This document shows, piece after piece, positions 10,812 through 39,217 of a DNA stretch of 64,000 nucleotides. The stretch is taken from NCBI GenBank assembly GCA_045120135.1, contig JBGVEN010000017.1, positions 12,278 to 76,277 on the forward strand, in the 5' to 3' direction. Both the position numbers and the translations under genes were made by a program. Every line of letters begins with the position of its first letter. Position 1 is the first letter of the stretch. The notes beneath the pieces are model-generated. The model was not told the DNA's origin, ran no database searches, and was given only the letters and a program-made list of their open reading frames with translations. This DNA comes from Monoglobaceae bacterium (lineage in GTDB: Bacteria; Bacillota; Clostridia; Monoglobales; Monoglobaceae).

Positions 10812-11156
10812 TTATTCTACCGGTATAAGTGACGGGGCAGAGGTTTGTTTAGATGTGGAGTCGGAGACGGTATTGGAATTGGGTTGCTCAGGCTTTTTAG
10901 GTTGTGCATCTGTTTTTGGAGTTGTATTTGGTATTTGCATTCCGGCGTTATCGACGGTAAAGTTTTCTTTATAAATTAGTTGAGAGACCGGCACGATTTT
11001 ATAGCCGTCTTTTTGCAGGCTTTCGATTATGGACGGCAGGGCTTCGGGGGTATGCTTTGCGGCGTTGTGGAACAGGATAATTGAACCGGGTTTTACCTTT
11101 TTTAATACACGGTCGGTGATTTCGGTAGCGGTTAAATCCTTCCAATCGAGACTGTC
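10812..11156 (-). pseudogene. Polysaccharide deacetylase (NodB family), C-terminal 115 codons, separated from its 5' part by the island
   Basis: The minus frame reads (G)DSLDWKDLTATEITDRVLKKVKPGSIILFHNAAKHTPEALPSIIESLQKDGYKIVPVSQL...stop. These are NodB motifs DxxDW and LxH. There is no start codon or N-terminal catalytic motifs here. Confidence 0.85.
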
Positions 11157-11207
11157 CCCGATGGCAACAGCTTCAAGTGGTATTTTTGAAACAAAAAAAT
11201 AAAACTA

Positions 11208-11236
11208 TTGACAAAAAATAGTTTTTTGGATATACT
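11208..11236 (+). promoter_or_regulatory. Putative sigma-A promoter at the left edge of the island
   Basis: TTGACA, 17 nt, TATACT. Confidence 0.4.
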
Positions 11237-11242
11237 GATACA

Positions 11243-11258
11243 AATTGATACTAAAATA
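11243..11258 (+). repeat. 16-nt motif AATTGATACTAAAATA, copy 1, in the leader of the barnase gene
   Basis: Identical 16-mer at 12313-12328. The surrounding ~38 nt also share TGGATA and ATCAG blocks. Confidence 0.6.
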
Positions 11259-11376
11259 TATCAGAAAAATTAAGTAAAAATGAGTATTTGAATTTTTAAT
11301 ATAAATTTTTAAAAGTTGTCCGTTTTGTTCTTTTTGTTCGTGTATAATTATAATAAAAGAGAAACGGAGTGATTAA

Positions 11377-11961
11377 ATGGAATTTAATTTAGACCTAGAA
11401 ATAATAAAAATAAAAATGCAAATGTTATACGGAAAAAGATTCGATCCCGTAGTACAAGACAGTATTAAGTGGCATATGTGGAAGACAATAATAACTAACA
11501 CAACTTGTGCGGTTTGCTATGAAAAAAGCGGAACTATTTTCAATGAGGAGTATATGCTCGATGAATTTCCTCCATTGCATGAAAAATGTAGGTGCTTTAT
11601 TGTAAAAGCAAAGTCCATTTGTGCAGGAACAGCAACTATTGAGGGCTTATTAGGTGCTGATTACACAGTAAAAAATAGAAAAAAATTACCACAAAACTAC
11701 ATATCTAAAAAGGAAGCTAAAGCAAAAGGTTGGAAGTCATTACTTGGAAACTTGCGTATAGCTTTGCCGAAGGCAACAATTGGTGGTGATGTATATCAGA
11801 ATAAAGAGGGAAAACTACCACAAAAAGTAGGTAGAGTGTGGTATGAAGCGGATGTTAACTATTTGGGAGGATATAGGAATTCGCATCGTTTGATTTATTC
11901 AAATGATGGCTTGATATTTATTACATATGACCATTATCTTACATTTTATGAGATTATTTAA
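11377..11961 (+). CDS. Barnase-type ribonuclease toxin fused to the tail end of a phage MuF/SPP1-gp7-like domain
   Basis: The C-terminus YISKKEAKAKGW...GGDVYQNKEGKLPQKVGRVWYEADVNYLGGYRNSHRLIYSNDGLIFITYDHYLTFYEII aligns with barnase. Equivalents of K27, E73, R83, R87 and H102 are conserved. The N-terminus has the CxxC...HxxCRC end of MuF head-morphogenesis domains. Confidence 0.85.
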   Translation: MEFNLDLEIIKIKMQMLYGKRFDPVVQDSIKWHMWKTIITNTTCAVCYEKSGTIFNEEYMLDEFPPLHEKCRCFIVKAKSICAGTATIEGLLGADYTVKNRKKLPQNYISKKEAKAKGWKSLLGNLRIALPKATIGGDVYQNKEGKLPQKVGRVWYEADVNYLGGYRNSHRLIYSNDGLIFITYDHYLTFYEII

Positions 11962-11975
11962 AAGGAGTGAAAACA

Positions 11976-12275
11976 ATGGCGAAATACAAAATAAACCTGT
12001 CGGGGGCAAAGTCTGTATATGATATACATGAAAAAATACAAGAGGGCTTAAAATTTCCGGATTATTATGGAAAAAATCTTGATGCGTTATGGGATTGTCT
12101 TACCGATATGGACGCTCCTGTTGAAATCTATATATATGGAGCTGAGACGCTTGGAAAGGGAATGAGTGAACTTTTTACAGAGAGCATTATAAAAATATTT
12201 GATGAGGTAAAAGAATGGTTTGATGAAACCGGAGAAAAATTTGAATTCACGATATGTGAAGAAAAATATAATTAA
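11976..12275 (+). CDS. Barstar-family immunity protein
   Basis: FPDYYGKNLDALWDCLTD matches the barstar inhibitory helix (YYGENLDALWDCLTG). ATG at 11976 lies 8 nt after AGGAG, directly downstream of the barnase gene. Confidence 0.85.
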   Translation: MAKYKINLSGAKSVYDIHEKIQEGLKFPDYYGKNLDALWDCLTDMDAPVEIYIYGAETLGKGMSELFTESIIKIFDEVKEWFDETGEKFEFTICEEKYN

Positions 12276-13545: not shown

Positions 13546-15207
13546 TTATGCGAGGGTTACATACAACACCAATTCCGTCATTGAGTCTATAAAGTCAAAA
13601 AAGTCCTTATCTTGGGATTTGATTTTGTCTTTTTCGCTTATAAACTTCAATAGTTTTTCTTCGGAAACATCGATATCAATAAAGCATTTTTTGTTGTTGG
13701 CTTTTCTAAGAACGGATGTTGGTATGCCTACATCTTCAATCTTTTTAGCAAGTTTTGTGGGTTTTGACAGCAATTCAATATTATCTGATCCCATAGTGGC
13801 AGCGTAGCTTTTTAACGCTTTGCCGAATTTTTTTGTTTCTATGTAATTGCCTTGTTCTTTGTCGCAGCAATCGCGAATAAAATTATGTATCAATTCGTCG
13901 AGTACGATTTCGTTATCCACATTCTGCTTTTCGCCGTGTATTATATGTAGACCATTTGCTGTTAAGCATAATTTTAGCCAGCCTATGTCTTCGGCGGTTA
14001 AAACTTTCAAGTCAAAATTTTCAATAGTGACGGTTTTGCAGGTTAAATTTTTGAAAAATTCATCCAGCTCCGTTTCATACTGAACAAGGGCAATCAAAGG
14101 ACTATACTCACCATTTGTATAAGGAATAAAGGGGTCTTCTTTTTCGGTTACCTTTCTTCCTTGCATAAGCTTTTTTACAGCGGAGTGGTTGATTTCTGAA
14201 AAATGCCTTTTGCTTACCATAACACTGTTTATTTGAAGAAGTGAATGGCTTGCATGGTCCAAGGTCAGACTTTCAATGAGCTTTTTCCCCTTTTTCTCAT
14301 AGATACTTGCAGAAGTTCTGTTATCGCAAAGTATTGATAACAGCTTTGCAAAATTTTGTTTCCCTTTACCGCATATATTCCATATGCATTTTGAGGATAA
14401 TTTTTCCACCAGCATTCTTGCAATAAGCTCGGAAATAAAGCTTAATGTATCAACTGAACCGCCTGTCATATCATGAAGAGCTTTCTTTATATTGTCTGAG
14501 GGCGCATGTGAGAAATATCCAAGACTAATGTATGAGTTGTATGATAATTCTTTTGTTGCATTTGAGTCGAATTTTGCAGTTCCCATAGCGGGGAGGTAGG
14601 ATAGTTTACCTTCGGCAAAATTAACCGAATATTCGTCAGCTTCAGTATCTGTTTGGGATTTACCCAATAGGCTTAAAAGCTCTTTTGCAAGGCTTGACTT
14701 TGCGGATTCACTTGCTACATAATGTCCTCTATTGTCCAAAACCAGGGATTCCATAAATTTATCAGTAAGAAGTTTTTGTCCAACATATATTCTTTTATCA
14801 TGGACGGATATGTTTTGTATATCGTCAAAAAACGGTAATAAAAATAAACCACACTGCCATTTGAAATTAAACAAAGCTTTGTAATATGGTGTGATTTCCA
14901 GTTGTGATAAATAAAGATACAGATTTTTGATTATACCTTCAATCAGGCCTTCTTGAAATGGAAGTCCCCCAAAGTATGCTTCGTGAAATCGTGACATGAT
15001 TTTGGTGGACATTTCCTCTGTGTCAATTTCAATATTTGTTCCCAAGCATCTTAGATTGTCACCCACCACATAAAAATATCTTTCGGGAGAATAAAGATAT
15101 GAATTCTGATTCCCGATATATTGATGCAGACAGTTTTGATAATTTGCAAGAGCATTTTTGATTGATATTCTGCGTGCTGTATCTAACATGTTTTCCTTTT
15201 GAAACAT
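13546..15207 (-). CDS. Hypothetical 553-aa protein; the C-terminal part loosely resembles phage/plasmid primase-helicase C-terminal regions, without an intact P-loop
   Basis: Long ORF convergent with fic. NICGKGKQNFAKLL occupies the place of a Walker A motif but is degenerate, and the tail NFIRDCCDKEQGNYIETKKFGKALKSYAA is reminiscent of P4/D5-type primase C-termini. The resemblance is weak. Confidence 0.3.
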   Translation of the reverse strand: MFQKENMLDTARRISIKNALANYQNCLHQYIGNQNSYLYSPERYFYVVGDNLRCLGTNIEIDTEEMSTKIMSRFHEAYFGGLPFQEGLIEGIIKNLYLYLSQLEITPYYKALFNFKWQCGLFLLPFFDDIQNISVHDKRIYVGQKLLTDKFMESLVLDNRGHYVASESAKSSLAKELLSLLGKSQTDTEADEYSVNFAEGKLSYLPAMGTAKFDSNATKELSYNSYISLGYFSHAPSDNIKKALHDMTGGSVDTLSFISELIARMLVEKLSSKCIWNICGKGKQNFAKLLSILCDNRTSASIYEKKGKKLIESLTLDHASHSLLQINSVMVSKRHFSEINHSAVKKLMQGRKVTEKEDPFIPYTNGEYSPLIALVQYETELDEFFKNLTCKTVTIENFDLKVLTAEDIGWLKLCLTANGLHIIHGEKQNVDNEIVLDELIHNFIRDCCDKEQGNYIETKKFGKALKSYAATMGSDNIELLSKPTKLAKKIEDVGIPTSVLRKANNKKCFIDIDVSEEKLLKFISEKDKIKSQDKDFFDFIDSMTELVLYVTLA

Positions 15208-15558
15208 ATAATCACCTTCCTTTTTGAGTATATCACATCCCTTGCCAAAAGTGTAGGAAAATTTGAAATATAGGAAAAATTTCTGTTTTCTATTGTAGAA
15301 TAGGCATAGATATATACAATATACTATTTAAAAAATATCCGTATATCTAGGAGTACTATAAGATATCATATATCACTTTCAAATAATGTGTAATGTTTTA
15401 CAATCACACTTACATATTATTAAAATGAAGGAGGTGATATATGTGGTTGTAACAAACACCTACATATCAAAAAACAAAAAAGACTACGAGCAAAAACGTA
15501 ATCTTATACATAGAAGATGCGTGCTGATACTTCGCTCAAGAAATGAGGGTAAGTAGTT

Positions 15559-17010
15559 ATGGACGCAATATACGCAAGACAGAGCCTTAATAAAAAAGAC
15601 AGCTTATCCATTGAAGGTCAAATTGACCTTTGCAAGAAACTTGCCGGAGAGGATGCGATTGTATTTAAGGACAAGGGTTTCTCCGGCAAGAACACAAAGA
15701 GACCTGCGTTTATGGAACTTATGGAGGCGGTTGAGGCAGGACAGGTGGAAAAGATTTATGTTTATCGCCTTGATCGATTCAGCCGCTCCATTTCGGATTT
15801 CAGCAGAATATGGGAGTTGCTTGAGAAGAATGGTACCCAGTTTCAGTCTGTTACCGAACAGTTTGATACATCAACGCCAATAGGAAGGGCGATGCTTAAT
15901 ATCGTTATGACCTTTGCGCAGCTTGAACGCGAGACAACGGCAGATCGTGTAAAGGATAATTATATACATCGTTTTGATTTGGGGGCGTGGCCGGGAGGCC
16001 CTGCACCCTATGGTTTTGACCTTAATAAAATAACAGATGCTTTTGGAAAGTCAGCATCTTCACTTTCAATAAATGCAGATGAAGCTGATGTAGTAAGGAG
16101 AATTTTTGAGCGGTATGCTGAAACCGGAACATCACTTCGCAGCGTCGCAAAAGAACTGATGGATGACAAAATCCATGGCCCAAAAAGAGAGGCATGGGAC
16201 AATGTGACCCTTTCAAGACTTTTGCACAGCCCCGTATACGTGAAAGCGAATGAGGATGTATATTGGCACTATATTTCCTTGGGACTTAATATTTCAAATG
16301 ACATATCAGCCTTCGATGGGATTCATGGATGCAATATTATGGGACAACGGGACAGGACAAGGAATAAGTATAATTCACTTGAAAACCAACGACTTGCCGT
16401 GGCGAACCATGAGGGATTTATAGATGCAAAGTTATGGCTTAATGTTCAGGAAAAGCTTTCTTCCAACAAGCAGATTTCTCTTGATAATGCCGGCAAATAC
16501 AGTTGGCTTACGGGGCTTTTAAAGTGTAAATGCTGTGGGTATGCGGTGAAAATAAATCACAGCAAGTCTGAAAATCGGATATATCTTATCTGTTCGGGCA
16601 AGTCAAATCTCAAGATATGCAACACAAAGATAAGTGTTGATATAAGAGAACTTGAAGCAACGGTTGAAAAGGAAATTGTAAAAGTTATAGATGAATGTTC
16701 TTTTGAAGATGCCGTAAACATGGATGCGGAAAGAGCAAGAGGAGTTCTTGATATAGAGCAAAGGATTGACCGCCTTGTAAATGCCTTGTCTGAGAGCAGT
16801 GAGGTGTCTGCCGCTTACATATCAAAGCAGATTGACAGACTTCACAAGGAACGGGAGAGTTTGCTGTCAGAAAAGGCACCAAAGCAAGGGGGAATTAAAA
16901 AGATAGATTTCCCCAAAGCGTCTTTTGAGGATAAAAAGCTTATAGCAGCCCAATTCATTGAAAAGATTTTGCTTGATGGCGAAAACGCAGAAATTATTTG
17001 GAAAATATAG
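15559..17010 (+). CDS. Large serine recombinase (LSR-1)
   Basis: 483 aa with the N-terminal resolvase catalytic domain (AIYARQSLNKKDSLSIEGQ, YVYRLDRFSRS), a recombinase domain, a Cys-rich zinc ribbon (CKCCGYAV...CSGK...C) and a coiled coil. Confidence 0.9.
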   Translation: MDAIYARQSLNKKDSLSIEGQIDLCKKLAGEDAIVFKDKGFSGKNTKRPAFMELMEAVEAGQVEKIYVYRLDRFSRSISDFSRIWELLEKNGTQFQSVTEQFDTSTPIGRAMLNIVMTFAQLERETTADRVKDNYIHRFDLGAWPGGPAPYGFDLNKITDAFGKSASSLSINADEADVVRRIFERYAETGTSLRSVAKELMDDKIHGPKREAWDNVTLSRLLHSPVYVKANEDVYWHYISLGLNISNDISAFDGIHGCNIMGQRDRTRNKYNSLENQRLAVANHEGFIDAKLWLNVQEKLSSNKQISLDNAGKYSWLTGLLKCKCCGYAVKINHSKSENRIYLICSGKSNLKICNTKISVDIRELEATVEKEIVKVIDECSFEDAVNMDAERARGVLDIEQRIDRLVNALSESSEVSAAYISKQIDRLHKERESLLSEKAPKQGGIKKIDFPKASFEDKKLIAAQFIEKILLDGENAEIIWKI

Positions 17011-17172
17011 CCTGATGATACTTAACGGTATCTGATGGCTTTATTTTTTATTCATTAACAAACGATATAACAATATAGTAAAATACAGGGCCCCGTGGGG
17101 AAGGATGTTGAATGCATTCTTCCCCGACTTGCGACCATAAATGGATAAATAATATATACAGGAGATGATAAA

Positions 17173-17661
17173 ATGGCAATATTAAAGATAGTAAACACTA
17201 AAGGTAAATACTATGATGAGTGTTCAAGGGAACAGGTTTTGGGATATATATTAAATCCTTATAAGACACCCAGTGGATATATTGGAAGCATAGAGATAAC
17301 AGGAGATAATTATGCTCAGGAAATGAATGATGTATCGGTAAGCTTTGGAAAGGTTGATGGAGTACAGCTGAGACATTTTATAATATCCTTTGAAAATTGG
17401 GAGGTAAAAGACCCAAAGATTGCGTATATGATAGGTCTTGATATAGCAAGATTCTTAGGTAGAGAATATCAGGCTGTGTTCAGTGTGCACGAAGATTCCG
17501 AGCAACTGCATATTCATTTGGTGATAAATTCTGTAAGTTTTATAGACGGACATAGGTACAGGGGGACAAGAGCAGAGTTTTATGGACTTAAAAATTATAT
17601 TAATGTGGTTATTGGCAGATTTGGTATTGCTCCGGTAAGGTATATATCAGATAAAGCATAA
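17173..17661 (+). CDS. Relaxase/mobilisation nuclease domain protein (short, domain only)
   Basis: HFIISFENWE ... YQAVFSVHEDSEQLHIHLVINSVSFIDGHRY matches the MobA/VirD2-type relaxase pattern with the HxH metal motif. Confidence 0.6.
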   Translation: MAILKIVNTKGKYYDECSREQVLGYILNPYKTPSGYIGSIEITGDNYAQEMNDVSVSFGKVDGVQLRHFIISFENWEVKDPKIAYMIGLDIARFLGREYQAVFSVHEDSEQLHIHLVINSVSFIDGHRYRGTRAEFYGLKNYINVVIGRFGIAPVRYISDKA

Positions 17662-17705
17662 TTTGTTTTTTACTTTCTTAACACAGAAATAAGGAGGTAT
17701 GCATT

Positions 17706-17888
17706 ATGCAATCAGAATATATCGAATTAATCACAATAGACGAGCTTTGTGAGCTTTTGATGATAGGTCGCACAACAGCATATAAGCTTTTGCAGTCACA
17801 TGAACTGAAAGCATTCAAAATAGGCAAGGTGTGGAAGATATCAAAAGCATCTGTGGAGGAGTACATAAAAATACGCAGTAACCTGTAG
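17706..17888 (+). CDS. Excisionase-family / MerR-like HTH DNA-binding protein
   Basis: 60 aa; ITIDELCELLMIGRTTAYKLLQSHELKAFKIGKVWKISKASVEEYI is the typical Xis-type HTH. Confidence 0.7.
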   Translation: MQSEYIELITIDELCELLMIGRTTAYKLLQSHELKAFKIGKVWKISKASVEEYIKIRSNL

Positions 17889-30000: not shown

Positions 30001-32788
30001 GCTTGGCGCAAGTACGGTTGTAACAGCTACAACAACAGGCGACCAAAGTTTTACTCCGCCTAAAATTGTGACAACCTATGATGGCATAGGCAAAGTAATC
30101 TCAGAGGAAAAACGCAACAATATCACCGATGCAGTGCTGACGAGGGACGAGTATAGCTATGACTTTTTGGGTAATGTCAAGGAGTATAGGGACAGCCGTG
30201 TAAACCTTGACGGAGTGGGAACGTTCACAACCCAAACAGAGTATAACTGGCAGGGACTTCCCGTTAAAGAGACAAATGCTGTCGGCGACGCAAAGCTCTA
30301 TGCCTATGACTTGCTTGGTAGACTTGTGGAGGCACAGGACGAAACAGGGTCAAAAACTATGTTTACATATGACCAGCTTGGCAGAGAAATCGTTGCGGAA
30401 AGTGAGATAACCGATACCGAAACCGCACGGACGGAAAAATATTACGATTTGAGCGGTAATGTGGTGAAAGAGAGAACCAAGAACAACAAAGCTGGACAGT
30501 CGACTGCTTACCGCGAGGTATGCTATGAGTATGACAGTATGCATCGCCCGACGGTTATCAAGACCAATGATGGCACAAGGGATATCTATACTCAGTATGC
30601 TTATGACAGCATGGGCAATGTTACAAAGGTTGTTACGGGTCAGACCCAAAAGCTTGATATGAGCGGTGAAATTCCACAAACCGCCAATGTTACACTGTAT
30701 GAGTATGACCGTTTTGGAAATGTAACAAAAACAACCGATGCAAACGGACTTTTCGAGACGGCGGAATATAACTATATAGGTTTGCCAATCACAACCACCG
30801 ACAAAAAAGGCGGGACAACTGCATATACATATAATGTCTACGGCAGTCGGCTGACTGCTTCGACAGCAGGGGTTGATACCATCAGCTATACCTACAATGT
30901 CAATAATATGCCGATTTCTGTGACACAAGGTGCAAATACCACGATTTATGAATATGACGCCCTTGGCAGATTGACAAAAGAGACAGAAAATGGTATAGTA
31001 AAGACATACAGTATGGATAAGCTTGGCAACCTCATATCGTCAAATGTGGGCGGTGTTGAAACCGCTTATAGCTATGATTTGCTCAATCGCTTAACAGGCG
31101 TAATCTTTGACGGCGGAAGTGCAGGCTATACCTATGACAAGATGGGCAGAATCATAGGCGAGACAAAAGGCGGTATTGAAACAAGCTATACCTACAACAA
31201 GGCAGGCTGGCTGACAAATAAGACAAATACCAAAGACAATGCAACAACTGCCTATGCCTTGACCTATTCCAATGACGGAAATATTGTAACAAGAACCGAA
31301 AACGGCGAGGTTACAAACTATACCTACGATAATTTAGGTCAGCTTGTTGCGGAAGATAACACCTTGTACGAATATGACACAAGGGGCAACCGCACAAAGA
31401 TGACCAAAGACGGAATTGTGACCGAGTATCGTTATGACCGTACAAACAAGCTTATGACCGAAAATACAAATGGCGTGTGGACGGCTTATGCCTATGACCA
31501 AAATGGCAATAATACATTAAGAGAAGTGTACGAGATAACAGCTGATGGAATGCAGGATGAGCTTTACTATCTTATTTTGAAGTATGACCCCCTTAATCGC
31601 CTGACAAAAGTACAAAAGGATGGTATGACTGCTGAATATATCTATGGCGTTGACAATATGCGTAAAAGCAAGACGGTGAATGGCGAAACGGAAAAGTATA
31701 TTTGGGATGGCGCGAATATAGTCGGTATTACTGATAATGAGGGTGTAATAACAAACAGATACTACCGAGGTGTAGGCTTAATCGCATCAAAAGAGAATGA
31801 TGTATTGAGTTATTATCAAACCAACGACCACGGCGATGTATCGGCTTGGGGTGGAGTATCATACAATTATGATGCGTTTGGTAATCAAAAAGACCAAAGT
31901 GATGATGGCAATCCGTTTAGATTTTGCGGAGAATATGCCGACGTTGAGAGCGGACTGATTTATCTCCGAAATCGGTATTATGACCCACAATTGGGACGGT
32001 TTATCAATGAAGACCCGATTAGGGATGGGCTTAATTGGTATGTTTATTGTGAAAATAATCCTGTTATGTTTGTTGACCCAACGGGATTACATTACGAGGA
32101 TGTTATAGCTGATTTAAGCACAATAGTAAGCGCCAAAGCACGAATGTTGTCTGCCCCAAGGTACAGCACCGAGTATAGGCTTGCATACCAAAACGCTATG
32201 CAAGCAAAAGAAAGTATAAGTAACGATGTAATATACATTGAAAATCTCGACGGGTTACGGTCGGTTTTGTCACCAATTGTAGAGGGTGATAACAACTCAT
32301 TGGAAAGTTTAAAGGGCGCTAGAAGTAGCGTTGAAACAGCGCTGAATGACTATAACAGAGGGCGGATTATAGATGATATTGTTACAACTGGGTTGTTGAC
32401 AGCTGGTGGAGCTGTTGCTATAAAAGCGGGAGTAGGAGCTTTAGCGGGGAAAATTGCTACAAAGGTAGCACCTGCTGCTTCTGTGGGATTTCCAACATTT
32501 AATAAGCTTAAAGAATATCTAGGTAGCCCGGGAAGTGGTAATCATTGGCACCACATAGTTGAACAATGCCAAATTGTGAAATCAGGATTTTCGGAATTTA
32601 CTATTCATGCGACCAATAATATATACGCTGTTAATGCTGACATACATGCTAAAATAACAGGATATTATGGCTCCATACAATCTTTTACAGATGGTATGAA
32701 GGTTAGAGATTGGTTAGCGGGGCAAAGCTTTGAAGCACAATATCAATTTGGAATAAATGTTTTAAAACAGTTTGGGGTTATAAAATAA
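27059..32788 (+). CDS. RHS/YD-repeat polymorphic toxin with an N-terminal signal/anchor and a C-terminal HNH/EndoVII-like (WHH/AHH-type) toxin domain
   Basis: Dozens of YD repeats (YxYDxxGN/R...). The Rhs core end reads RYYDPQLGRFINEDPIRDGLNWYVYCENNPVMFVDPTGL, followed by a ~230-aa tail ending GNHWHHIVEQ...NNIYAV...HAKI. The likely start is ATG 27059 (GAGGTGG RBS); the track ORF starts at 27038. Confidence 0.9.
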   Translation: MNKIKYCVLKSSQNKAALIFVSIFVTLAAILLPNVCVHASTSDHLYAKSHIEANRDLYGEKYTPAQKLSSGEIDHSTGEVRVDEVDISLPGKNGLDLNIHRIYGSQEPQYRPKYIKDDYYVEYVTEKAYTYTAMDGSGTQLYVSFEKEEDMVDSFYTTPRALSGNRNEDVFGVEYEEYTSIKSSTGEILLERDKTNGVKRIYLSSRTGMDTVGKKEGNVYINSARSHWKLVMPYVSRTTCISENTRRVYYYRFSNENGEIYDLRFYVTTDDSTPHIVTKFYGSAFSVELAEDSELKSYTLILTDKTGKIYKFNLGTFAEMDSQTVVTDCTVSDRFGNTIIYNGNEITDSYGRKLRITANGIELYNGNNYKYIVKYGISEIYDQDRDPYGKLTIFTKHKLTVSRSTSSLDSPNESFEETIYITQAKETDCSISKYDHVPVYLLREVVHPQGLKVIYDYETKCNEEKTPISSYNGTIKKYYVPRVASRTEYIKTSDDVYTRKNHSSYSYNTYTVSFLFDDKKSVDEFVYIGGVEYKIITRRYDDFGRILRIIESDGTDTKDEEYLYEYSESDNRITSLETLDYPIIRQKPIKVIKTTVNGVLTDAVMTNYTRDRKPTLVQKGLQKTTYTYDDTYGFLIESTQTSDFDRSIKTVGTKTKDGKNIAKTEIFDVVGDAETLQGVTEYTYNADGTMASKTVWQTLNGDTIQTVYTYNYSLFTNLQGGEHSVTSTITTTDASGNIYTETTAIEYDLLGNVIKETFADGTATSYKYDLMRRVTEEFYPDGTKNSIAYSNNYQGSTVSVTRPDGSVLTYQYDPNGNYLSASLDEMLLISNTYDALNRKIKTTSYNDDDTALVERYSYDALDRVTAQTTAGETVNYMFDGTENVFNVKNNSSYISGSTDLNGQYVAALIITNSTTRSSVSWSASVDVIVDDEKVCDVGVFFDTIEYAVIDLRGKNTLEFDGRMNGTICVRLIKLEDLGTGTLGASTVVTATTTGDQSFTPPKIVTTYDGIGKVISEEKRNNITDAVLTRDEYSYDFLGNVKEYRDSRVNLDGVGTFTTQTEYNWQGLPVKETNAVGDAKLYAYDLLGRLVEAQDETGSKTMFTYDQLGREIVAESEITDTETARTEKYYDLSGNVVKERTKNNKAGQSTAYREVCYEYDSMHRPTVIKTNDGTRDIYTQYAYDSMGNVTKVVTGQTQKLDMSGEIPQTANVTLYEYDRFGNVTKTTDANGLFETAEYNYIGLPITTTDKKGGTTAYTYNVYGSRLTASTAGVDTISYTYNVNNMPISVTQGANTTIYEYDALGRLTKETENGIVKTYSMDKLGNLISSNVGGVETAYSYDLLNRLTGVIFDGGSAGYTYDKMGRIIGETKGGIETSYTYNKAGWLTNKTNTKDNATTAYALTYSNDGNIVTRTENGEVTNYTYDNLGQLVAEDNTLYEYDTRGNRTKMTKDGIVTEYRYDRTNKLMTENTNGVWTAYAYDQNGNNTLREVYEITADGMQDELYYLILKYDPLNRLTKVQKDGMTAEYIYGVDNMRKSKTVNGETEKYIWDGANIVGITDNEGVITNRYYRGVGLIASKENDVLSYYQTNDHGDVSAWGGVSYNYDAFGNQKDQSDDGNPFRFCGEYADVESGLIYLRNRYYDPQLGRFINEDPIRDGLNWYVYCENNPVMFVDPTGLHYEDVIADLSTIVSAKARMLSAPRYSTEYRLAYQNAMQAKESISNDVIYIENLDGLRSVLSPIVEGDNNSLESLKGARSSVETALNDYNRGRIIDDIVTTGLLTAGGAVAIKAGVGALAGKIATKVAPAASVGFPTFNKLKEYLGSPGSGNHWHHIVEQCQIVKSGFSEFTIHATNNIYAVNADIHAKITGYYGSIQSFTDGMKVRDWLAGQSFEAQYQFGINVLKQFGVIK
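31928..32016 (+). repeat. 89-bp repeat, copy A, at the end of the RHS core (encodes GEYADVESGLIYLRNRYYDPQLGRFINEDP)
   Basis: Base-for-base identical to the reverse complement of 35439-35527; flanking bases differ on both sides. Confidence 0.95.
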
Positions 32789-33108
32789 TGAAAGAAGAGT
32801 TTTTATATAATTCAAATAAATTTTATGAATACCATAATAATAATCAAATAGACAATGCAAATGAACATGCAAAGAGAATGAATTTAATCTTAAAAGATAT
32901 TGTTAATGAAGATTCATTTGACACTTTTTGTGATGATATTTTACTGTCCCAAAATTCAATTGCGATAATTTGGGTTTGTGGGTTATGTATCGATTATAAC
33001 TATAGACGAGATGATGCCATTGAGATTCTAAAAGAGTTATCTTATAATGAAGATGAAATAATTTCTCGTGATGCAAGTATGTTATTGTTTGTGAAACTAA
33101 GGGAATAA
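32788..33108 (+). CDS. Putative cognate immunity protein of the RHS C-terminal toxin
   Basis: 106 aa. The start overlaps the RHS stop (TAATG). Assignment rests on position only. Confidence 0.55.
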   Translation: MKEEFLYNSNKFYEYHNNNQIDNANEHAKRMNLILKDIVNEDSFDTFCDDILLSQNSIAIIWVCGLCIDYNYRRDDAIEILKELSYNEDEIISRDASMLLFVKLRE

Positions 33109-33116
33109 CATTGTCG

Positions 33117-34127
33117 TTTGGGGACGTACATTTTTGGGAATATTGGGGACGGGGAATATTGGGGACGTGCCTGATTTTGCACATTTTAATTGACTAATCA
33201 AAACAAATATGGTATAATTCGGTAAAGGGAAGTGATAAAGGTGAGTAGACCGCCACGAGTTCTCAGCGAAACCGGATTATACCATATTATTTTTAGAGGC
33301 CTTAATCGACAGAATTTATTTGAAGAAGACGAAGACTATATAAAACTGCTTGAAATAATAAATGACGTAAAAAATATATTTGAAATACAGATATACGCTT
33401 ATTGTCTAATGACAAATCACGTACACTTGTTTTTAAGAGAAAAGGAGTCGGGAGATATTAAGACAATAATGCATAAGTTGCTGACTCGGTATGTCATGTG
33501 GTACAACCGAAAATATCAGCGTAGTGGAAGCTTGATAGGAAATCGTTATAAGAGCGAGCCTATAGAAGACGAAACATATTATCTCACTTTGATGAGGTAT
33601 ATACATCAGAATCCTGTGAAAGCAGGTATGGTTGATAAACCGGAAGAGTATATCTGGAGTAGTTATAATGATTACATAAACTTAAAAAATGAATTAACAG
33701 ATATAGAATTTGGTTTATCGATTTTGTCAGGGAATGAAGAGCAGGCATTAAAAGAATTCAAAGAATTTCATGAAACCATGGAAGATACTGATTTTTCAAT
33801 ATCAAACACAAAAAAACTTACGGACGAACAATTAAAACGAAGAATTATAAAAATAACTGGCGGAATTAGACCGGATGAAATAGCACTAAGAGCAAAGGCG
33901 GACAGAGACTATATAATTACATTGTTAAGGAATGAAGGGTTTACGATAGGACAATTAGAAAGAGTCACGGGAATATCACGAGGTATTATAACAAGGGCAA
34001 ACGTGCAAAAATAGGCACGTCCCCAATATTAATATTCAAGTTTAAAGGGACAGTTCGACCGAACTGTCCCTTTTGACTTATAGTGTTAGTATGTGCCAAA
34101 AAATGTACGTCCCCAAATGGCTCATTT
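33117..34127. mobile_element. RayT/IS200-like Y1 transposase unit bounded by nested inverted repeats
   Basis: Outer inverted repeat: tttggggacgtacatttttgg (33117-33138) vs ccaaaaaatgtacgtccccaaa (34106-34127). Inner inverted repeat: aatattggggacgtgcct (33155-33172) vs aggcacgtccccaatatt (34023-34040). There is an extra direct copy of aatattggggacg. Confidence 0.6.
33232..34014 (+). CDS. IS200/RayT-like HUH (Y1) transposase with a C-terminal HTH
   Basis: LYHIIFRGLNRQNLF, HUH motif NHVHLFL, YIHQNPVKAG with the catalytic Tyr region, and the C-terminal HTH GFTIGQLERVTGISRGIITRA. Confidence 0.75.
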   Translation: MIKVSRPPRVLSETGLYHIIFRGLNRQNLFEEDEDYIKLLEIINDVKNIFEIQIYAYCLMTNHVHLFLREKESGDIKTIMHKLLTRYVMWYNRKYQRSGSLIGNRYKSEPIEDETYYLTLMRYIHQNPVKAGMVDKPEEYIWSSYNDYINLKNELTDIEFGLSILSGNEEQALKEFKEFHETMEDTDFSISNTKKLTDEQLKRRIIKITGGIRPDEIALRAKADRDYIITLLRNEGFTIGQLERVTGISRGIITRANVQK

Positions 34128-34814
34128 GATATTCAATCGCTGTCTATTTCTGTTTTCATTCAACATCAACCATTCTTGAATAAGATTATAATCTTCATCT
34201 TCTATCAACTTTAGTAAGCTTTGCTTTTCAGAAATCTTTTTCTTCATTTTTTGAATATATTCTTGGGTGATTTTTTCTCCTAACATCTCCCTGTTTCTTT
34301 CAAAAACATATTCACTATGCGCGATTATATTTATAACATGTTGTTTACCATAAAGATACTGTTTATTTTTTAAAGCCATAATCATCTTTGGGTATTCATT
34401 ATAAAAAACAGCTCCATCAACATCAAATACTTTTAATGCTTCGTATGCGTCAATACAATTTGTAGCTTTTTGAAAGAATGGCATTAAATATTTTTCCATA
34501 TAATAGAGCATCTGCCCTATGCAAATATTTATACTATTTTCATCTTTAGTTATATAGGAAAACCAATCTGCGCTGTTTTCAAATCTTTTTAAATGTGTTG
34601 CTCCACACGTTGATTTATCTATTTTATACTCTTGTGATAATGGTAAAACACAAAACTCTACAGTTGCATCGGTTTGGTAATGTGAACGGTGAAGACAGAA
34701 ACTTTGAAAAACATCATTGACAACCCTATAATGATAATTACGATATGTTTTAAATCCATATTCATTGAATTCTTCTTTGCATCGTTTTTTGTATTCTTTC
34801 AAAAAATAATCCAT
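34122..34814 (-). CDS. Putative immunity protein of the orphan toxin cassette (DUF4304-like)
   Basis: 230 aa. ATG lies 8 nt after the toxin stop with an overlapping AGGAG. The N-terminus EFNEYGFKTYRNYHYRVVNDVFQSFCL resembles DUF4304-type immunity proteins. The family call is weak. Confidence 0.5.
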   Translation of the reverse strand: MDYFLKEYKKRCKEEFNEYGFKTYRNYHYRVVNDVFQSFCLHRSHYQTDATVEFCVLPLSQEYKIDKSTCGATHLKRFENSADWFSYITKDENSINICIGQMLYYMEKYLMPFFQKATNCIDAYEALKVFDVDGAVFYNEYPKMIMALKNKQYLYGKQHVINIIAHSEYVFERNREMLGEKITQEYIQKMKKKISEKQSLLKLIEDEDYNLIQEWLMLNENRNRQRLNIK

Positions 34815-34822
34815 AATTTCTC

Positions 34823-35527
34823 CTATTGTATCGTTTGAAGTCTAATCTTATTTAAAGAAAATAACGACATAAAGGCACCGAGTACGGTCATTTCCTTTTC
34901 AATGGCATAAGCCTTCACAGTATCCCAATTTGTTATTTTATAGTAATCGTAAGCTATAACACCATCACCAGCATACCTATATGAAATGTAATATGCATCT
35001 ATATTTATGTTTTGAACAAAGCTACCCGGTGCTATCTCACCACCTACATACAAATCCGTATCTGAGTGGTCTTTCCATTCATTAGCAACATATTTTTGTA
35101 CCTGTGTAACACCTTTTGCAATTTGATTGGGTTTATCTCTCTTAACATCCCATACAGCACCATCATTACTGATAAGATCTGCACGTCCCCAACCAAAATC
35201 ATAATATATTGTTTGTTCAGTATTCAAATCATATATCGAAGCTACTTTTTTCACAACGAGATTGTGAATTTGTCCTGGATATGCGAGCATCCCCGTAGAA
35301 TCAATATATTTTAAAGGATTATTCATACAATAAACATACAAGTTACTGCTTTGCATTATTGCATTTATGTCAGGAATTTTTGTTTCTCCGTCCTTATACT
35401 CTTTATCCCCATAAACCATATTGTTAGTATTCCAATATGGGTCTTCATTGATAAACCGTCCCAATTGTGGGTCATAATACCGATTTCGGAGATAAATCAG
35501 TCCGCTCTCAACGTCGGCATATTCTCC
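34823..35527 (-). other. Orphan RHS C-terminal toxin cassette (no start codon of its own), possible PD-(D/E)xK nuclease tip
   Basis: It begins with the 89-bp RHS-core repeat just after an in-frame TGA. It continues ...NLYVYCMNNPLKYIDSTGM (core-end motif), then a unique ~160-aa tail with GWGRADLISNDGAVWDVKRDK (D...D-x-K pattern). Confidence 0.75.
35439..35527 (-). repeat. 89-bp repeat, copy B, inverted, at the 5' end of the orphan cassette
   Basis: Perfect reverse complement of 31928-32016. Confidence 0.95.
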
Positions 35528-35557
35528 TGAGTATCATAACGTGTGCTGTAATTGATT

Positions 35558-37123
35558 TTACGGCATTTCACCTACATAGAGAAAGTGTATTTTAATTTTA
35601 ACTTCCCTTTTTCCTGCAATTATTTCCTCGCTTATTAATATTGTATCTATAAGGTCTGTCAAAATATCTCGGTTCAGGTCGGATATGTTGCAATATTTTT
35701 TTATTGTATTTATCCATTTTACGGAATCGGAAGTATAGTTTTTTATTGACTGCATTCGGTCACTTGCTGATTTAAGGTTGGATTCCACTTCTAATTGTTC
35801 AGCCTCGTATTCACTTAAAAGCGTGGAGAAAACTTTATCGGATATTTTTTGGTTTACGTTATCTTCGTAAAGTTGTTTCATTAAAATTTTTATTTCGTTA
35901 TTACGTGAAGTCAGGGATGATAAGCGTGAGTTTAAAGAAGCTAACTCGTCTTTATAACGAGACTCTAACAGCGCTTCAAGTTCGCTGCGTTTTCTTTTTG
36001 CCATAGTGGCATATTTTTTTATTTCGCTAACAACATACTGCTTAAGTTCGTCTTTTCGTATATAATGGCTGCTACATTTTTCGTTGCCGTATCTTCTGTA
36101 TTGGGCACATGAATAGTATTCAACCATATGTGATGCGGAAAAAGAAACAGCATAACCGCATTCGTTACAGTTCAGAAACCCGGAAAAAAGGTGAGGTTTT
36201 TGACTGCGATTTACTTTGTGGTGTTCAGCAATAATCTGTTGAACTTTTTCCCAAGTATCGAGTGAGACAATTGGTTCGTGAGTGTTGGGCGTTATTAACC
36301 AATCATCTTTGGGTTTTCGCTTTGATGGGGAGCGTTTAAACTGAGAGCAATCATATAATCCTTGCACCATATCACCGACATATATGCGGTTTTTTAATAT
36401 AGTAAGTATTGCTGCTGCGCCCCATTCTTTTTGATAGTTGGGTTGTTGACCCAAACGCATTTTCCTGTATTCAAGAGGCGGAAGAATTTTGTCACGGTTT
36501 AGACTTTTTGCTATTTTTACGCTGCCTATACCGGAAAGCGCCATTTCAAAGATATTTTTTACTATTGGAGCTGAAAACTCATCAATAATAAGCTTATTTT
36601 TGTTATCTGGATTTTTCTTATATCCATAAGGTGCGTAATTGCTTAAAAATTCGCCTTTTTCTTTTCTGGTCTTCACCGCTGAACGAATCTTTTTTGAGAT
36701 ATCCTTAGCGTACATTTCGTTAAGGATGTTTTTGAAGGGGGCAATATCGTTGTTGTTATTCAGGGTATCAATACCATCGTCAAGGGCTATAAAACGCACA
36801 TTTTTGGCGGGGAAAAATATTTCGGTATAGTGACCGGTAAGTATGTAATTTCTGCCAAGTCGAGACAGGTCTTTTACCAAAACGGTGTTAATCTTCCCAT
36901 TCTCTATATCAACGAGAAGTCTTTGGAATTCGGGACGGTTGAAGTTAGTTCCGCTCCAACCATCGTCTATGTAATAGTCGTGGATAAGCCAATGATGTTC
37001 TTTAGCATATTTTTCAAGCATTATTTTTTGGGTCAAAATACTTGAACTTTCTGCATTTGCTGCAATATCGTCTTTGGATAGCCTGCAGTAGATTGCGACA
37101 AGGCATTTGTTTGTGTTGTTCAT
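35558..37123 (-). CDS. Large serine recombinase (LSR-2), probable integrase of the island
   Basis: 521 aa with VAIYCRLSKDD catalytic N-terminus, VKDLSRLGRN, a recombinase domain, a zinc ribbon (CNECGYAV...CAQYRRYGNEKC) and a coiled coil. It is the last gene of an immR-immA-int arrangement next to the right junction. Confidence 0.9.
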   Translation of the reverse strand: MNNTNKCLVAIYCRLSKDDIAANAESSSILTQKIMLEKYAKEHHWLIHDYYIDDGWSGTNFNRPEFQRLLVDIENGKINTVLVKDLSRLGRNYILTGHYTEIFFPAKNVRFIALDDGIDTLNNNNDIAPFKNILNEMYAKDISKKIRSAVKTRKEKGEFLSNYAPYGYKKNPDNKNKLIIDEFSAPIVKNIFEMALSGIGSVKIAKSLNRDKILPPLEYRKMRLGQQPNYQKEWGAAAILTILKNRIYVGDMVQGLYDCSQFKRSPSKRKPKDDWLITPNTHEPIVSLDTWEKVQQIIAEHHKVNRSQKPHLFSGFLNCNECGYAVSFSASHMVEYYSCAQYRRYGNEKCSSHYIRKDELKQYVVSEIKKYATMAKRKRSELEALLESRYKDELASLNSRLSSLTSRNNEIKILMKQLYEDNVNQKISDKVFSTLLSEYEAEQLEVESNLKSASDRMQSIKNYTSDSVKWINTIKKYCNISDLNRDILTDLIDTILISEEIIAGKREVKIKIHFLYVGEMP

Positions 37124-37159
37124 TTAAATTCCTCTTGAACATTATAATTATTGTCGAGG

Positions 37160-37311
37160 AAACGGCGAAACGCCGTTTTTAGCGGAACAAGTTCCGCAAC
37201 TATCAAGCAATGGGCTTGAAAGCCTCACATAATTGCAATAATGTCGGTCTATGAAAACAGAGTTTTCATAGGGGTTTGCGATATGGCGCAAACAAAAACG
37301 CATATGCGTTT
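37160..37311. repeat. Array of six unrelated short hairpins/palindromes in the immA-LSR spacer
   Basis: aaacggcg-aaa-cgccgttt; gcggaac-aa-gttccgc; ggctt-ga-aagcc; ctatgaaaac-aga-gttttcatag; tttgcg-atatgg-cgcaaa; aaacgcatatgcgttt. Confidence 0.6.
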
Positions 37312-37367
37312 TACCGACTATTATTATAACACAATACAAATAAAGTTGCAACAATGAGTTTGGTGGG

Positions 37368-38066
37368 TTATTCTCCAATGCAATCAAGACAGGGGGTGTA
37401 GCCCTTGGATATAGCCTTGTCTATTGTCATTTGGGTTGTATTTGTTTTATATTTTACGTGTTTGCAAAAGTCTCTGTGGTAGCGTATGCCCGTGGTTGTA
37501 ACATAGTAGGGTTGGGTTAAAGCTGTGGATTGATGTATTGAAAATACAGCTTTAACCTGAGGTGTGTTTGTTATGCAGATACCGCCGGCGGCAAGAAGAA
37601 GTAACACAAAAATCAGAATACAGACAAGCTTTCGCCTTAAAAATATTGAGATTATTTTTGTCAGCAGAGACGGGTGTTCAAGGTAATGAGCAAATTCGTT
37701 TGCGAAGGCTTCTTGCTCGATTTTGGAGTATATGTGATTTGGTGCATCAAGGCGTTTGTCACATATATGGCCAAGCTCGTGGCAGAGAAGCGTTATCTTT
37801 TCGGATTCCTTTAAATCAGAATTAATAAAAAGGAATTTTATGTTGCCGTCCACATAGACAAAGCTATTTTCTGTGGAAATTCTGTATTCAAGCCTGAGAG
37901 TTTGGATTAATTCATTGACCTCAGATGTGTTGTTGTATTTGTTATATTCAATTATTGTAAAACCGTTGTTTTGGATAAGTTCTTCCAAAGTTTTAAGGCT
38001 CGGTGCTACACTCAATCGGTTTTTACGCATTAGTTTTTGAGAAAGTTTTTTGGGAGAATCAGTCAT
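37368..38066 (-). CDS. ImmA/IrrE-family metallopeptidase with a TM helix and a C-terminal Ada-like zinc-binding motif
   Basis: HExxH in LLCHELGHICD, then EQEAFANEFA. A hydrophobic helix follows (LVCILIFVLLLLAAGGICI). The C-terminus reads YYVTTTGIRYHRDFCKHV...GYTPCLDC. Confidence 0.75.
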   Translation of the reverse strand: MTDSPKKLSQKLMRKNRLSVAPSLKTLEELIQNNGFTIIEYNKYNNTSEVNELIQTLRLEYRISTENSFVYVDGNIKFLFINSDLKESEKITLLCHELGHICDKRLDAPNHIYSKIEQEAFANEFAHYLEHPSLLTKIISIFLRRKLVCILIFVLLLLAAGGICITNTPQVKAVFSIHQSTALTQPYYVTTTGIRYHRDFCKHVKYKTNTTQMTIDKAISKGYTPCLDCIGE

Positions 38067-38490
38067 TGTTTGTTTTGTCCTTTATCTTTTGCGCAAGGGT
38101 AAGAATGAGTTTTTCCTCATCGGTAAGGGGAGTATCGGAAGTAAGGCTGCCGTAAGCTGCGATGGTGGGCGCTGCTTGTGTTGCTGTGATTCTTCGATAC
38201 TCGGTTTCGGCAACGGAGCAGACGGTATGTTTGCCCAAATCATCCAATACGGTATATTTTTCGATAAGCTCGGTTAGTTGTTTGTCGTTAACAACCGGTA
38301 TATTGTTTGCGTGTGATATGTCAAGGGTGTCGAAAATTTTCATTACCATATTATAATTTGATGCACCAACGCCGTTTTTGAGAATAAAGTTTACAGTTGT
38401 TCGGGGGATGCCGATATATTGTGCAAAGTTTTCAATGGTTTTGAATTTTTCTTTGATTCTTTTTCTTATAAGCTCTTTGTATAAATCCAT
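38059..38490 (-). CDS. XRE-family HTH regulator (ImmR-like)
   Basis: ATG at 38490 follows GAGGTGA. The HTH is FKTIENFAQYIGIPRTTVNFILKNG. Its stop overlaps the immA start by 8 nt. Confidence 0.75.
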   Translation of the reverse strand: MDLYKELIRKRIKEKFKTIENFAQYIGIPRTTVNFILKNGVGASNYNMVMKIFDTLDISHANNIPVVNDKQLTELIEKYTVLDDLGKHTVCSVAETEYRRITATQAAPTIAAYGSLTSDTPLTDEEKLILTLAQKIKDKTNND

Positions 38491-38687
38491 TTTTATCACC
38501 TCTGTTTGTATTATATAGTATATAAAAGAACATGTCAAGACGGTGTGATGAATAAAGAGTTAATTTATCATATAATATTTATAGGCAAGATGTTGACCAT
38601 ACAAAAGCGGCTGATTTATCAAAAATCAGTCGCTTTTATATCTCCCAACCTCTTGCGCGCCAAGGGGTTCCAACTGTTGCCAGTATT

Positions 38688-39217
38688 TCGACATCCCATT
38701 GGATTGTGAAGTGGCCGGTGTCACGCATTGCGCCGACAACTGCATTGTTGTAGTCGCCATAGGGGGCACGGAAGAGGTTGGGTTTTATGCCGGTTATTTT
38801 TTCGATTTTTTGGTCGCAGCTCTGGACTTCTTCTTTCATTTTTTCTGTTGTAAGCTGGGTCATATGGGGATGGGTGTCTGAATGATTCATAATTTCGTGA
38901 CCTGCGTCGGATAGTTGTTTTACCGATTCGGGGAATTTATCAACCCAACCGCCAACCACAAAAAATGTGGTTTTAACATTATATTTATTCATTATTTCGA
39001 TTAACTGTCCGGTGTCTTCGTTGCCCCAGGCGGCATCAAAACTCATTGCAACAACCTTGTCATCTTCGGCTTTTTGAACGCAGTAGATGGGCAAATCTCG
39101 TTTCCCACCCGATACAGGCAGTACATCACTTTTTCCTATGTAAACCAGAGAAAATGCAAGCAGGACAACAAGCGAAAGCATTATTCCCGTGCGTTTGGTT
39201 ATTACGAAAATCTTCAT
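38688..39217 (-). pseudogene. Polysaccharide deacetylase (NodB family), N-terminal 176 codons; read-through into island DNA adds 17 unrelated codons (the tracked ORF ends at 38636)
   Basis: TM helix, then VVAMSFDAAWGNEDT (motif 1), GHEIMNHSDTHPH (motif 2) and LFRAPYG (motif 3), ending HFTIQWDV and then EILATVGTPWRARGWEI-stop. Confidence 0.85.

Follow-up and report, generated by a model that had tools for sequence, protein, structure and literature searches.

The window, a 64-kb stretch (64,000 nt) of contig JBGVEN010000017.1 from the genome assembly of a Monoglobaceae bacterium, carries in two pieces a gene for a NodB-type polysaccharide deacetylase (hereafter pda), and between the pieces lies a composite genomic island of 27.5 kb (11157-38687). 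A minus-strand open reading frame (ORF) starting at 39217 specifies 176 codons of the NodB deacetylase, ending in ...GHFTIQWDV, and then runs through 20 unrelated codons to a stop at 38636. The remaining residues (DSLDWKDL...GSIILFHNAAKHT... up to the stop codon, LFHNAAKHT being among them) are encoded on the same strand at 11156-10812. The dinucleotide TC is present at both junctions (11155-56 and 38688-89; GA on the gene strand): when 10812-11156 and 38690-39217 are joined at this shared TC, an in-frame ORF of 873 nt and 290 amino acids (aa) results, which reads QWDV-DSLDW across the join. Both half-genes and their in-frame union had been proposed from the DNA letters alone, in what we call the sequence-only reading, and its coordinates proved correct to the base. 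The parts of the split gene and of the two island ends are listed below; att denotes attachment sites, and L-numbers denote loci retrieved from other genomes.

10812-11156, minus strand: pda 3′ half, codons 177-290 plus stop; the TC at 11155-56 is the crossover dinucleotide, and the B′ half-site lies at about 11130-11154
11157-11206, no strand assigned: P arm of attP, type A (...CCACTTGAAGCTGTTGCCATCGGG beside the core), the island's left end; conserved in L060, L067, the attP of L039, and L082
38603-38640, minus strand: terminator hairpin just inside the right end (-25.1 kcal/mol, z = -3.85)
38645-38689, no strand assigned: P′ arm with the crossover TC (38688-89), GA-AATACTGGCAACAGTTGGAACCCCTTGG... 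on the gene strand; about 45 bp conserved in nine other species
38690-39217, minus strand: pda 5′ half, codons 1-176; the B half-site runs from 38690 to about 38715
39253-39279, minus strand: pda promoter, TCTAAA-N12-GAATATATT, conserved in at least 26 species

Excision in silico restores the open reading frame, and the joined product matches intact orthologues. In Pfam, the joined protein is recognised as Polysacc_deac_1 (2e-37). Typing by profile hidden Markov models, which the sequence-only reading had left to be done, returned PdaB (TIGR02764) as the best NCBIfam match, with 219 bits for a cutoff of 237, followed by ylxY and pdaA; the target is thus probably a PdaB-like NodB deacetylase.

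When one genome per species was scanned, 70 loci were obtained. One of them, L001, is collinear with the window over 4758-11156 and then directly over 38688-39290, at approximately 90% nucleotide identity: it is the empty site, with the uninterrupted gene that would be expected in a related genome. Since both flanks are collinear with this one intact gene, the two halves are very unlikely to derive from different paralogues, the case that would have spoken against the proposed join. The intact motif, ...CAATGGGATGTN-GA-CAGYCTNGAYTGG..., occurs in 40 related species, and 12 further species have halves only, all broken at the same GA. The broken loci comprise nine 5′ halves (L032, L036, L037, L038, L039, L041, L042, L043 and L050) and five 3′ halves, two of which share genomes with 5′ halves. 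The site is therefore occupied in at least 12 of the ~52 related species sampled (~23%). None of the 14 gene halves in the carrier species has acquired a frameshift or a stop codon. The P′ arm of ~45 bp is kept in all nine 5′-half loci, in most of which a hairpin of varying sequence comes next.

The reconstructed attB is CAATCGAGACTG-TC-GACATCCCATTGG and the reconstructed attP is CTGTTGCCAGTATT-TC-CCCGATGGCAACAG. Both had been given by the sequence-only reading and are right as written, as L001 provides the empty site and L039 holds the predicted attP, where the barnase end of the island is joined to its ImmR end at the dinucleotide. The two sites are pseudo-palindromic around a non-palindromic 2-bp GA/TC crossover, with attL and attR as exact hybrids of them. 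P arms exist in two types, the type covarying with the subtype of the recombinase LSR2 introduced below. The type-B attP is nearly palindromic (TTTCCAACYGYTGCCA...TGGCAACAGTTGGAAA): in both arms, counted outward from the crossover, GGCA occupies positions 7-10 and TTGGAA positions 15-20. The type-A P arm in the window has GGCAACAG at 7-14 but a degenerate CTTCAA at 15-20, and the P′ arm has TTGGAA at 15-20 from the crossover. In the attB half-sites, the corresponding motif stands at positions 10-15 from the centre (TTGGAA in B′, TTGGAT in B). In the sites of large serine recombinases (LSRs), the motif of the zinc-ribbon domain lies 5 bp closer to the centre in attB than in attP (Rutherford et al., PMC3783163), and this inward shift of 5 bp is seen at the pda site. 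The dyad symmetry remarked on earlier is therefore more than chance: by its motif spacing and geometry, the pda site is a genuine LSR attB/attP pair.

Some loci are arranged differently around these sites. In L039 (1895-6487), the pda 5′ half and P′ arm are followed in tandem by Fic-barstar-barnase, an intact attP and ImmR-ImmA; a mini-element lacking a recombinase is apparently joined to a full element via an internal attP. In L043 (4662-7654), the pda promoter and 5′ half have ImmR-ImmA immediately upstream and are followed by the P′ arm and then barstar-barnase, beyond which there is no P arm; this may be a rearrangement or a misassembly. In three Christensenellaceae loci (L059, at ~4729; L061 and L062, at ~6555), a distant orthologue of 38% identity is also interrupted, ~8 bp downstream of the same motif (IQWDIDT|...), by unrelated DNA, with no serine recombinase within 6 kb of the interruptions. 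Other elements seem to have converged there on the same conserved motif.

Three serine recombinases are encoded in the island: LSR1 (35558-37123), LSR2 (15559-17010) and a small resolvase (21244-21837). The genes and signals that concern the first two are as follows.

15391-15420, plus strand: σE-like promoter, TAATGTT-N15-CATATTAT; the sole pattern match in the 64-kb window
15443-15556, plus strand: micro-ORF of 37 aa (MVVTNTYISKNKKDYEQKRNLIHRRCVLILRSRNEGK) with a strong ribosome-binding site (RBS) and a stop 2 nt before the LSR2 ATG; candidate directionality factor
15559-17010, plus strand: LSR2, large serine recombinase of 483 aa, the probable cognate integrase (Pfam Resolvase, Recombinase and Zn_ribbon_recom)
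35558-38538, minus strand: secondary module of ImmR (38059-38538), ImmA (37368-38066), orf79 and LSR1 (35558-37123, with DUF4368)

The sequence-only reading had noticed the ImmR-ImmA-LSR1 module next to the right junction, where it is indeed present, had implied a role for it in integration, and had named both large recombinases as candidates. If 35558-38538 served the island for integration and regulation and the insertion were the work of LSR1, the module's place beside the P′ arm would be the classic one for an integrase; LSR1 is moreover a full-length protein of 521 aa with all LSR domains plus DUF4368, and L039 and L043 likewise carry ImmR-ImmA next to P′-arm sequence. Yet no LSR1 homologue occurs within 6 kb of the nine other right junctions. 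In L041, the P′ arm leads straight to a Y1 transposase and RHS, with neither ImmR-ImmA nor LSR1, and in L039 the attP and ImmR-ImmA are followed after ~850 bp by a Y1 transposase, LSR1 being missing. The relatives of LSR1 in L074, L075 and L076 (90%, 87% and 56% identity) sit in other contexts, among RHS/polymorphic-toxin cassettes, with no pda fragment and no P′ arm. On these comparative grounds LSR1 was rejected as the island's integrase, a role we now hold to be very improbable; together with orf79 and the orphan toxin pair, it appears to be a later, window-specific acquisition not tied to the pda site.

LSR2, on the other hand, travels with the att site. It has the Resolvase (5.7e-35), Recombinase (3.8e-18) and zinc ribbon (3.3e-10) domains, and in all 13 loci sampled the genes of the LSR2 family adjoin a pda half that breaks off at residue 177. 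These relatives are 90-95% identical to LSR2 in L060, L067 and L082-87 and 63-72% identical in L065, L071, L072, L073, L079 and L081. As LSR1 is missing at the other right junctions and LSR2 is always beside a pda half, LSR2 is very probably the recombinase that catalyses integration at the pda site. The family is large, with over 2800 members at E < 1e-30, and no relative above 38% identity was found in the phage or plasmid collections searched.

The islands integrated in this way appear to form a large, previously undescribed family in gut Oscillospirales and related Clostridia, resembling integrative mobilizable elements. A complete member of 11.1 kb is present in L071, in the order: pda 3′ half, 575-aa protein, micro-ORF, LSR, 163-aa relaxase-domain protein, HTH_17, amidoligase_2, GATase, kinase, Mor, small resolvase, P′ arm and pda 5′ half. 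The backbone of the window (13546-21837) matches this order, with additions, and consists, apart from the micro-ORF and LSR2, of the following genes.

13546-15207, minus strand: 553-aa backbone protein, tentatively a D5/SF3-like primase-helicase or replication initiator; conserved beside LSR2
17173-17661, plus strand: MobA/VirD2-like relaxase-domain protein of 162 aa (PF03432, 8e-20)
17706-17888, plus strand: HTH_17 excisionase-like protein of 60 aa (domain search)
18013-19119, plus strand: amidoligase_2
19121-20035, plus strand: GATase
20111-20371, plus strand: Mor-like activator, followed by a gene for a 192-aa protein
21244-21837, plus strand: small resolvase

The order from amidoligase to resolvase is conserved in L071 and L082, and the relaxase-domain protein (162 aa) and HTH_17 recur with the same length and order in L071, L073, L081 and L082; in L072, a 163-aa relaxase-domain protein is the last gene before the contig end. 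The 553-aa protein is found beside LSR2, by sequence match or equal length, in L060, L067, L072 and L082-L087, and proteins of similar size take its position in L065, L071, L073 and L081. It has no family match in Pfam, NCBIfam or PHROG. An AlphaFold2 (AF2) model built from a 10-sequence alignment reached a pLDDT of only 58, and the top Foldseek matches of this model were all primase-helicases, at TM scores of only ~0.2; in L065, the protein that takes this place gives a weak match to Pox_D5. The backbone protein may tentatively be a D5-like replication protein.

Over the backbone, the window is 91% identical in nucleotide sequence to L060, L067 and L082, against 76-78% for the host flanks. 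L065 comes from a host nearer to that of the window (YebC, 93% aa identity), yet the two LSR2 proteins are only 64-65% identical. With elements more alike than their hosts, the island family, by this comparison, moves horizontally between species. What the other members carry is diverse: MFS-melibiase-esterase genes, a Pol III alpha-like protein, a KAP NTPase and a rhamnosidase.

Two further loci depart from the plain arrangement. In L072 (7343-11452), the pda 5′ half and P′ arm adjoin the side of the 556-aa protein and the LSR, so that the attP polarity is flipped relative to the window. In L067 (3-2876), residues 1-371 of one LSR2 copy show 95% identity, after which this copy runs on into a 701-aa ORF; adjoining it is a second LSR2 copy, of type B, with its own σE-like promoter and micro-ORF, and this locus may represent tandem or nested elements.

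The upstream region of LSR2 diverges between the subtypes, except for T[AC]AT[GA]TT and, 15 nt further on, CATAT[TAC]AT; the two conserved blocks stand ~7 nt ahead of a strong RBS. The consensus of the mother-cell sigma factor σE in Bacillus subtilis is kmATAww-N14-CATACAhT. With kmATAww-N15-CATAyxxT as the search pattern, the window gave one match, where 0.64 would be expected. Each of the 11 LSR2 copies examined is preceded by a σE-like promoter; nine of these fit the pattern as it stands, and L079 has the variant TTATATT-N15-CATATCCT. Among the fetched loci, pattern matches not associated with LSR2 had no recognisable downstream genes, except for the pda orthologue in L045. The promoter of the LSR2 operon is thus σE-like by its sequence, and in Clostridioides difficile, too, σE promoters have an ATA-containing -35 and a CATA-type -10 element (PMC3789822).

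Between promoter and recombinase lies the micro-ORF, which specifies 37-40 aa with the conserved protein pattern ..TNT[YF].[ST]K....[EQ][KR]..L...[IV]HRRC.L.L.. and stops -1 to +3 nt from the LSR2 start across the copies; in L081, it was called as a 37-aa gene. That it encodes a recombination directionality factor is a tentative idea, which we would not call likely.

The split gene itself has a promoter of the form TCTAAA-N12/13-GAATATAYT in at least 26 species. Orthologues of 36-45% identity have ATTCTAA-N16-CATATAAT/CATATAGT, with a CATA-type -10, and the one in L045 has a canonical σE-like promoter, TCATATT-N15-CATATTCT. Three polysaccharide deacetylases are under σE control in C. difficile (PMC3789822). 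Being PdaB-like and having a conserved promoter, with a CATA-type -10 in the distant orthologues, the target looks like a sporulation gene. The host has sporulation and division genes close by (6754-7943), comprising yabP (6754-7017), yabQ (7018-7536) and divIC; the first two had already been recognised from the sequence. The yabP gene is σE-dependent in B. subtilis. Upstream of yabP in the window (6684-6730), there is a GCATATT-N14-AATATATT, in which the -35 is perfect for the σE type and the -10 has the same A-for-C variant as the pda promoter.

The rest of the island was added to the backbone on both sides. Barnase/barstar and Fic genes are inserted between the P arm and the backbone, and a further ~17 kb of cargo comprises the MG2/Ig protein, RHS with its immunity gene, the Y1 transposase, an orphan RHS tip with DUF4304, and the LSR1 module.

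11377-12275, plus strand: barnase-like RNase toxin with a MuF-like N-terminus (11377-11961) and barstar (11967-12275) (Pfam); accessory, absent from L060 and L082
12343-13500, plus strand: Fic/DOC family protein (Pfam); accessory, absent from L082
23867-26161, plus strand: MG2/Ig-repeat surface protein (Pfam), followed by a gene for a 294-aa protein; cargo
27038-32788, plus strand: RHS toxin of 1916 aa (Pfam); cargo
32788-33108, plus strand: putative RHS immunity gene, 106 aa; cargo
33232-34014, plus strand: IS200-like Y1 transposase, flanked by inverted repeats
34122-34814, minus strand: DUF4304 putative immunity gene (Pfam)
34823-35464, minus strand: orphan RHS C-terminal toxin, linked to the RHS core by an 89-bp inverted repeat

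The interior is AT-rich, as had been pointed out, with a GC content of 0.31-0.39 over most of the island and 0.43 only across the RHS gene, versus ~0.45 in the flanks. The view that the cargo is one of toxins and conflict systems rather than a phage also held: RHS with immunity, barnase/barstar and Fic are present, and no capsid, portal, terminase or tail genes were found, either by Pfam in the whole island or by PHROGs in ten proteins of the backbone region. A prophage was ruled out on this lack of structural genes and on att patterns with no match in IMG/VR. Pfam-type domain searches of the island gave no conjugative pore or type IV secretion system (T4SS) families, and Rfam and tRNA scans of it gave no matches.

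Several details of the cargo deserve a record. A 158-aa ORF (23063-23539) is weakly similar (7.7e-07) to the family of the 162-aa relaxase-domain protein and may be a second, diverged copy of it. The inverted repeats flanking the Y1 transposase (TTGGGGACGTRC...) lie at 33117-33189 and 33999-34117; the 86 bp at 34038-34123, with a hairpin inside, are 98.8% identical to L002 2175-2260 in a different species, near a Y1 homologue. A perfect 89-bp inverted repeat links the end of the RHS core (31927-32015), with that arm inside the RHS gene, to the start of the orphan toxin (35440-35528), with this arm 30 bp from the LSR1 stop codon. Inverting the 3.4 kb in between (32016-35439) would swap the toxin tip together with the immunity gene, and the arrangement may be an invertible toxin-tip switch. 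Orphan toxin-immunity pairs likewise come after the LSR1 relatives of L075 and L076; the core-end repeats of L076 have direct orientation, with a toxin-Imm32-LSR unit between them.

Taken with these data, the history of the locus could be as follows. LSR2 would recombine an attP of ~50 bp with an attB of ~40 bp, situated on the motif coding for QWDV|DSLDW, with crossover at GA (gene strand); the insertion would split pda, leaving its 5′ half terminated and its 3′ half silent. The ancestral backbone would have measured ~11 kb (D5-like protein, micro-ORF, LSR2, small relaxase, HTH_17, amidoligase and GATase, Mor, small resolvase), and the island of this genome would later have gained its ~17 kb of toxin and conflict cargo and the unrelated ImmR-ImmA-LSR1 module. 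Recombination of attL with attR would rebuild the 290-aa gene exactly. We place this excision in the sporulating mother cell, with the forespore retaining the island: the micro-ORF-LSR2 operon would be transcribed from the conserved σE-type promoter, and the micro-ORF, or else HTH_17, would serve as the directionality factor. To the explanation as a whole, an LSR2-family island whose removal in the mother cell rebuilds pda, we assign a probability of about 0.5, and for the sporulation-linked excision within it the chances seem to us evenly balanced. A fuller version, in which the mobile family, housed in a spore-cortex deacetylase gene, constitutes a developmental DNA switch removed only in the mother cell by a σE-driven operon with a new, minimal directionality factor of 37-40 aa, is doubtful at present.

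The mechanism would be standard attP x attB integration by an LSR, and the island a candidate intervening element alongside skin, SPbeta, vfbin, vrin, gin, phi3T and yin. It resembles the skin elements in sigK (SpoIVCA/Skr; CD1231/CD1234) in that an LSR element splits a coding sequence (that of a sporulation gene in skin, of a sporulation-type gene here) whose frame comes back on precise excision, and in that a small ORF abuts or overlaps the recombinase start. In B. subtilis, the directionality factor gene skr overlaps the 5′ end of spoIVCA and is σE-controlled (PMC6957869); in C. difficile, CD1234 is a directionality factor of 72 aa with a σE promoter whose transcription start site (TSS) is 14 bp from the start codon (PMC5025042), comparable to the σE-like promoter found here, at ~15-20 nt from the small gene's start codon. 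Unlike skin, the island has a PdaB-like deacetylase rather than a sigma factor as its target, and a mobilizable-element-like backbone still moving between species rather than a defective prophage, and its excision is a proposal. SPbeta in spsM (SprA/SprB) and phi3T in kamA are likewise mobile and LSR-mediated, with the gene rejoined on excision (PMC4191935, PMC5499854, PMC6957869), but SPbeta is a functional phage of 134 kb, unlike the island with its lack of capsid, terminase and tail genes and of IMG/VR matches, and in SPbeta it is the directionality factor SprB, not the integrase, that is the regulated gene.

Also comparable are gin in gerE of Bacillus cereus, a non-prophage intervening element, and yin in yabG of Clostridium botulinum, where a clostridial LSR element occupies a sporulation gene and attB is conserved (both PMC5595907, PMC10747680). 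These two are reported from single strains or narrow groups, unlike the present family, with at least 12 of ~52 species and thousands of LSR homologues. With the integrative mobilizable elements that use serine recombinases (PMC5704250), the island family shares a size of ~11 kb, an integrase, a relaxase-domain protein, variable cargo, a lack of pore genes and horizontal spread; it differs in that its relaxase-like protein has only 162 aa, its site lies inside a sporulation-type gene and its integrase operon has a sporulation-type promoter. In the literature searched, a deacetylase was never found as the target of an intervening element, the targets being sigK, spoVFB, spoVR, spsM, gerE, kamA and yabG. 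The island stands apart from these elements by its target gene, by a backbone of mobilizable rather than prophage type, and by the way one and the same site is filled in many uncultured species of gut Clostridia.

Apart from an insertion made by LSR1, considered above, two explanations compete with mother-cell excision. One is an artefact, either a chimeric assembly or fragments of different paralogues that fit only by appearance. The comparison data are mostly contigs of metagenome-assembled genomes (MAGs), and the arrangements in L043 and L039 are odd; against this, L001 has one uninterrupted gene with which both flanks are collinear, the same two kinds of junction and their conserved att arms turn up in over 20 independent assemblies from separate studies, and joining the halves keeps the frame and recreates an invariant motif, so that we give an artefact next to no credence. 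The other competitor, only somewhat less probable in our judgement than an even bet, takes the island to be an ordinary integrative mobilizable one that plays no part in development: pda would be a dispensable paralogue that stays inactive, excision would be rare and serve transfer only, and the conserved motif would be targeted merely as a reliable landing site. The backbone (relaxase-domain protein, HTH_17 excisionase-like gene, possible replication protein), the clear transfer between species, the diverse adaptive cargo (toxins, sugar utilisation genes, KAP NTPase) and the flipped insertion polarity in L072 agree with this. So does L079 (6702-11449), which has the pda 3′ half and an LSR2-family gene but, in the 10 kb downstream, neither a relaxase nor a 5′ half, the genes there (PFK, SodC, SLH protein) being host-like; it may be a decayed, non-restorable copy. 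An ordinary island does not explain why a σE-type and not a vegetative promoter is conserved before every LSR2 operon examined, across 63-95% divergence, nor the micro-ORF abutting the recombinase, which mirrors skr-spoIVCA, and with ~23% of the sampled species interrupted, 0 of 14 gene halves are degraded.

Mother-cell excision itself has to be set against a number of observations, the L079 copy among them. The excised forms that a hunt for repaired chromosomal and circular junctions might reveal did not appear in JGI contigs or IMG/VR, the attP junction in L039 being the part of that hunt that succeeded: two attP patterns gave one chance match in JGI metagenome contigs, on a contig of 61% GC; one attP pattern and the attR-junction pattern had no match in IMG/VR; a collection of 15 billion proteins does not contain the joined protein in its exact form; in all seven contigs retrieved for a close LSR2 variant, the element is integrated wherever the left end is covered; and no excised circle or strain-level repaired gene was found in the public assemblies searched. 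The earlier comparison with skin and SPbeta has gained a conserved promoter and a micro-ORF, and lacks excision products. The target's PdaB score is below the curated cutoff. Its -35 (ATTCTAA) is not known to fit any of the consensus sequences for sigma A, E, F, G, H and K, a σA-like reading of the promoter in the close group (TTCTAA-N17-TATAYT) is possible, and expression of pda in the forespore would break the developmental model. As regards the LSR2 operon, the σE consensus comes from B. subtilis as well as C. difficile and may not be that of the host clade, and in the window a σ70-like TTTACA-N18-TAAAAT, absent as a conserved feature from the other subtypes, overlaps the σE-like promoter. 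Excision for transfer alone, given a relaxase and horizontal spread, would account for the recombination module, and an LSR2 always co-transcribed with its directionality factor would leave integration in a new host unexplained.

Whichever way excision is used, the site and its elements form a complete LSR system at the sequence level, with integrase family, attP, attB, crossover dinucleotide and candidate directionality factors; since LSR2 has less than 38% identity to the phage and plasmid collections searched, it is a possible new integration tool. Through the pda motif, a recurrent landing site, genes for toxins, defence and carbohydrate utilisation move among uncultured Clostridia of the gut. 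If sporulation-linked excision is true, a cell-wall deacetylase joins the list of rearranged sporulation genes, and mobilizable islands, not prophages alone, exploit the terminal mother cell to hide the cost of their insertion. Should the family prove to be a developmental switch, it would be the first multi-species intervening element of mobilizable-element type in Clostridia, which would explain how toxin, defence and sugar-utilisation cargo can be carried free of cost inside a sporulation gene.

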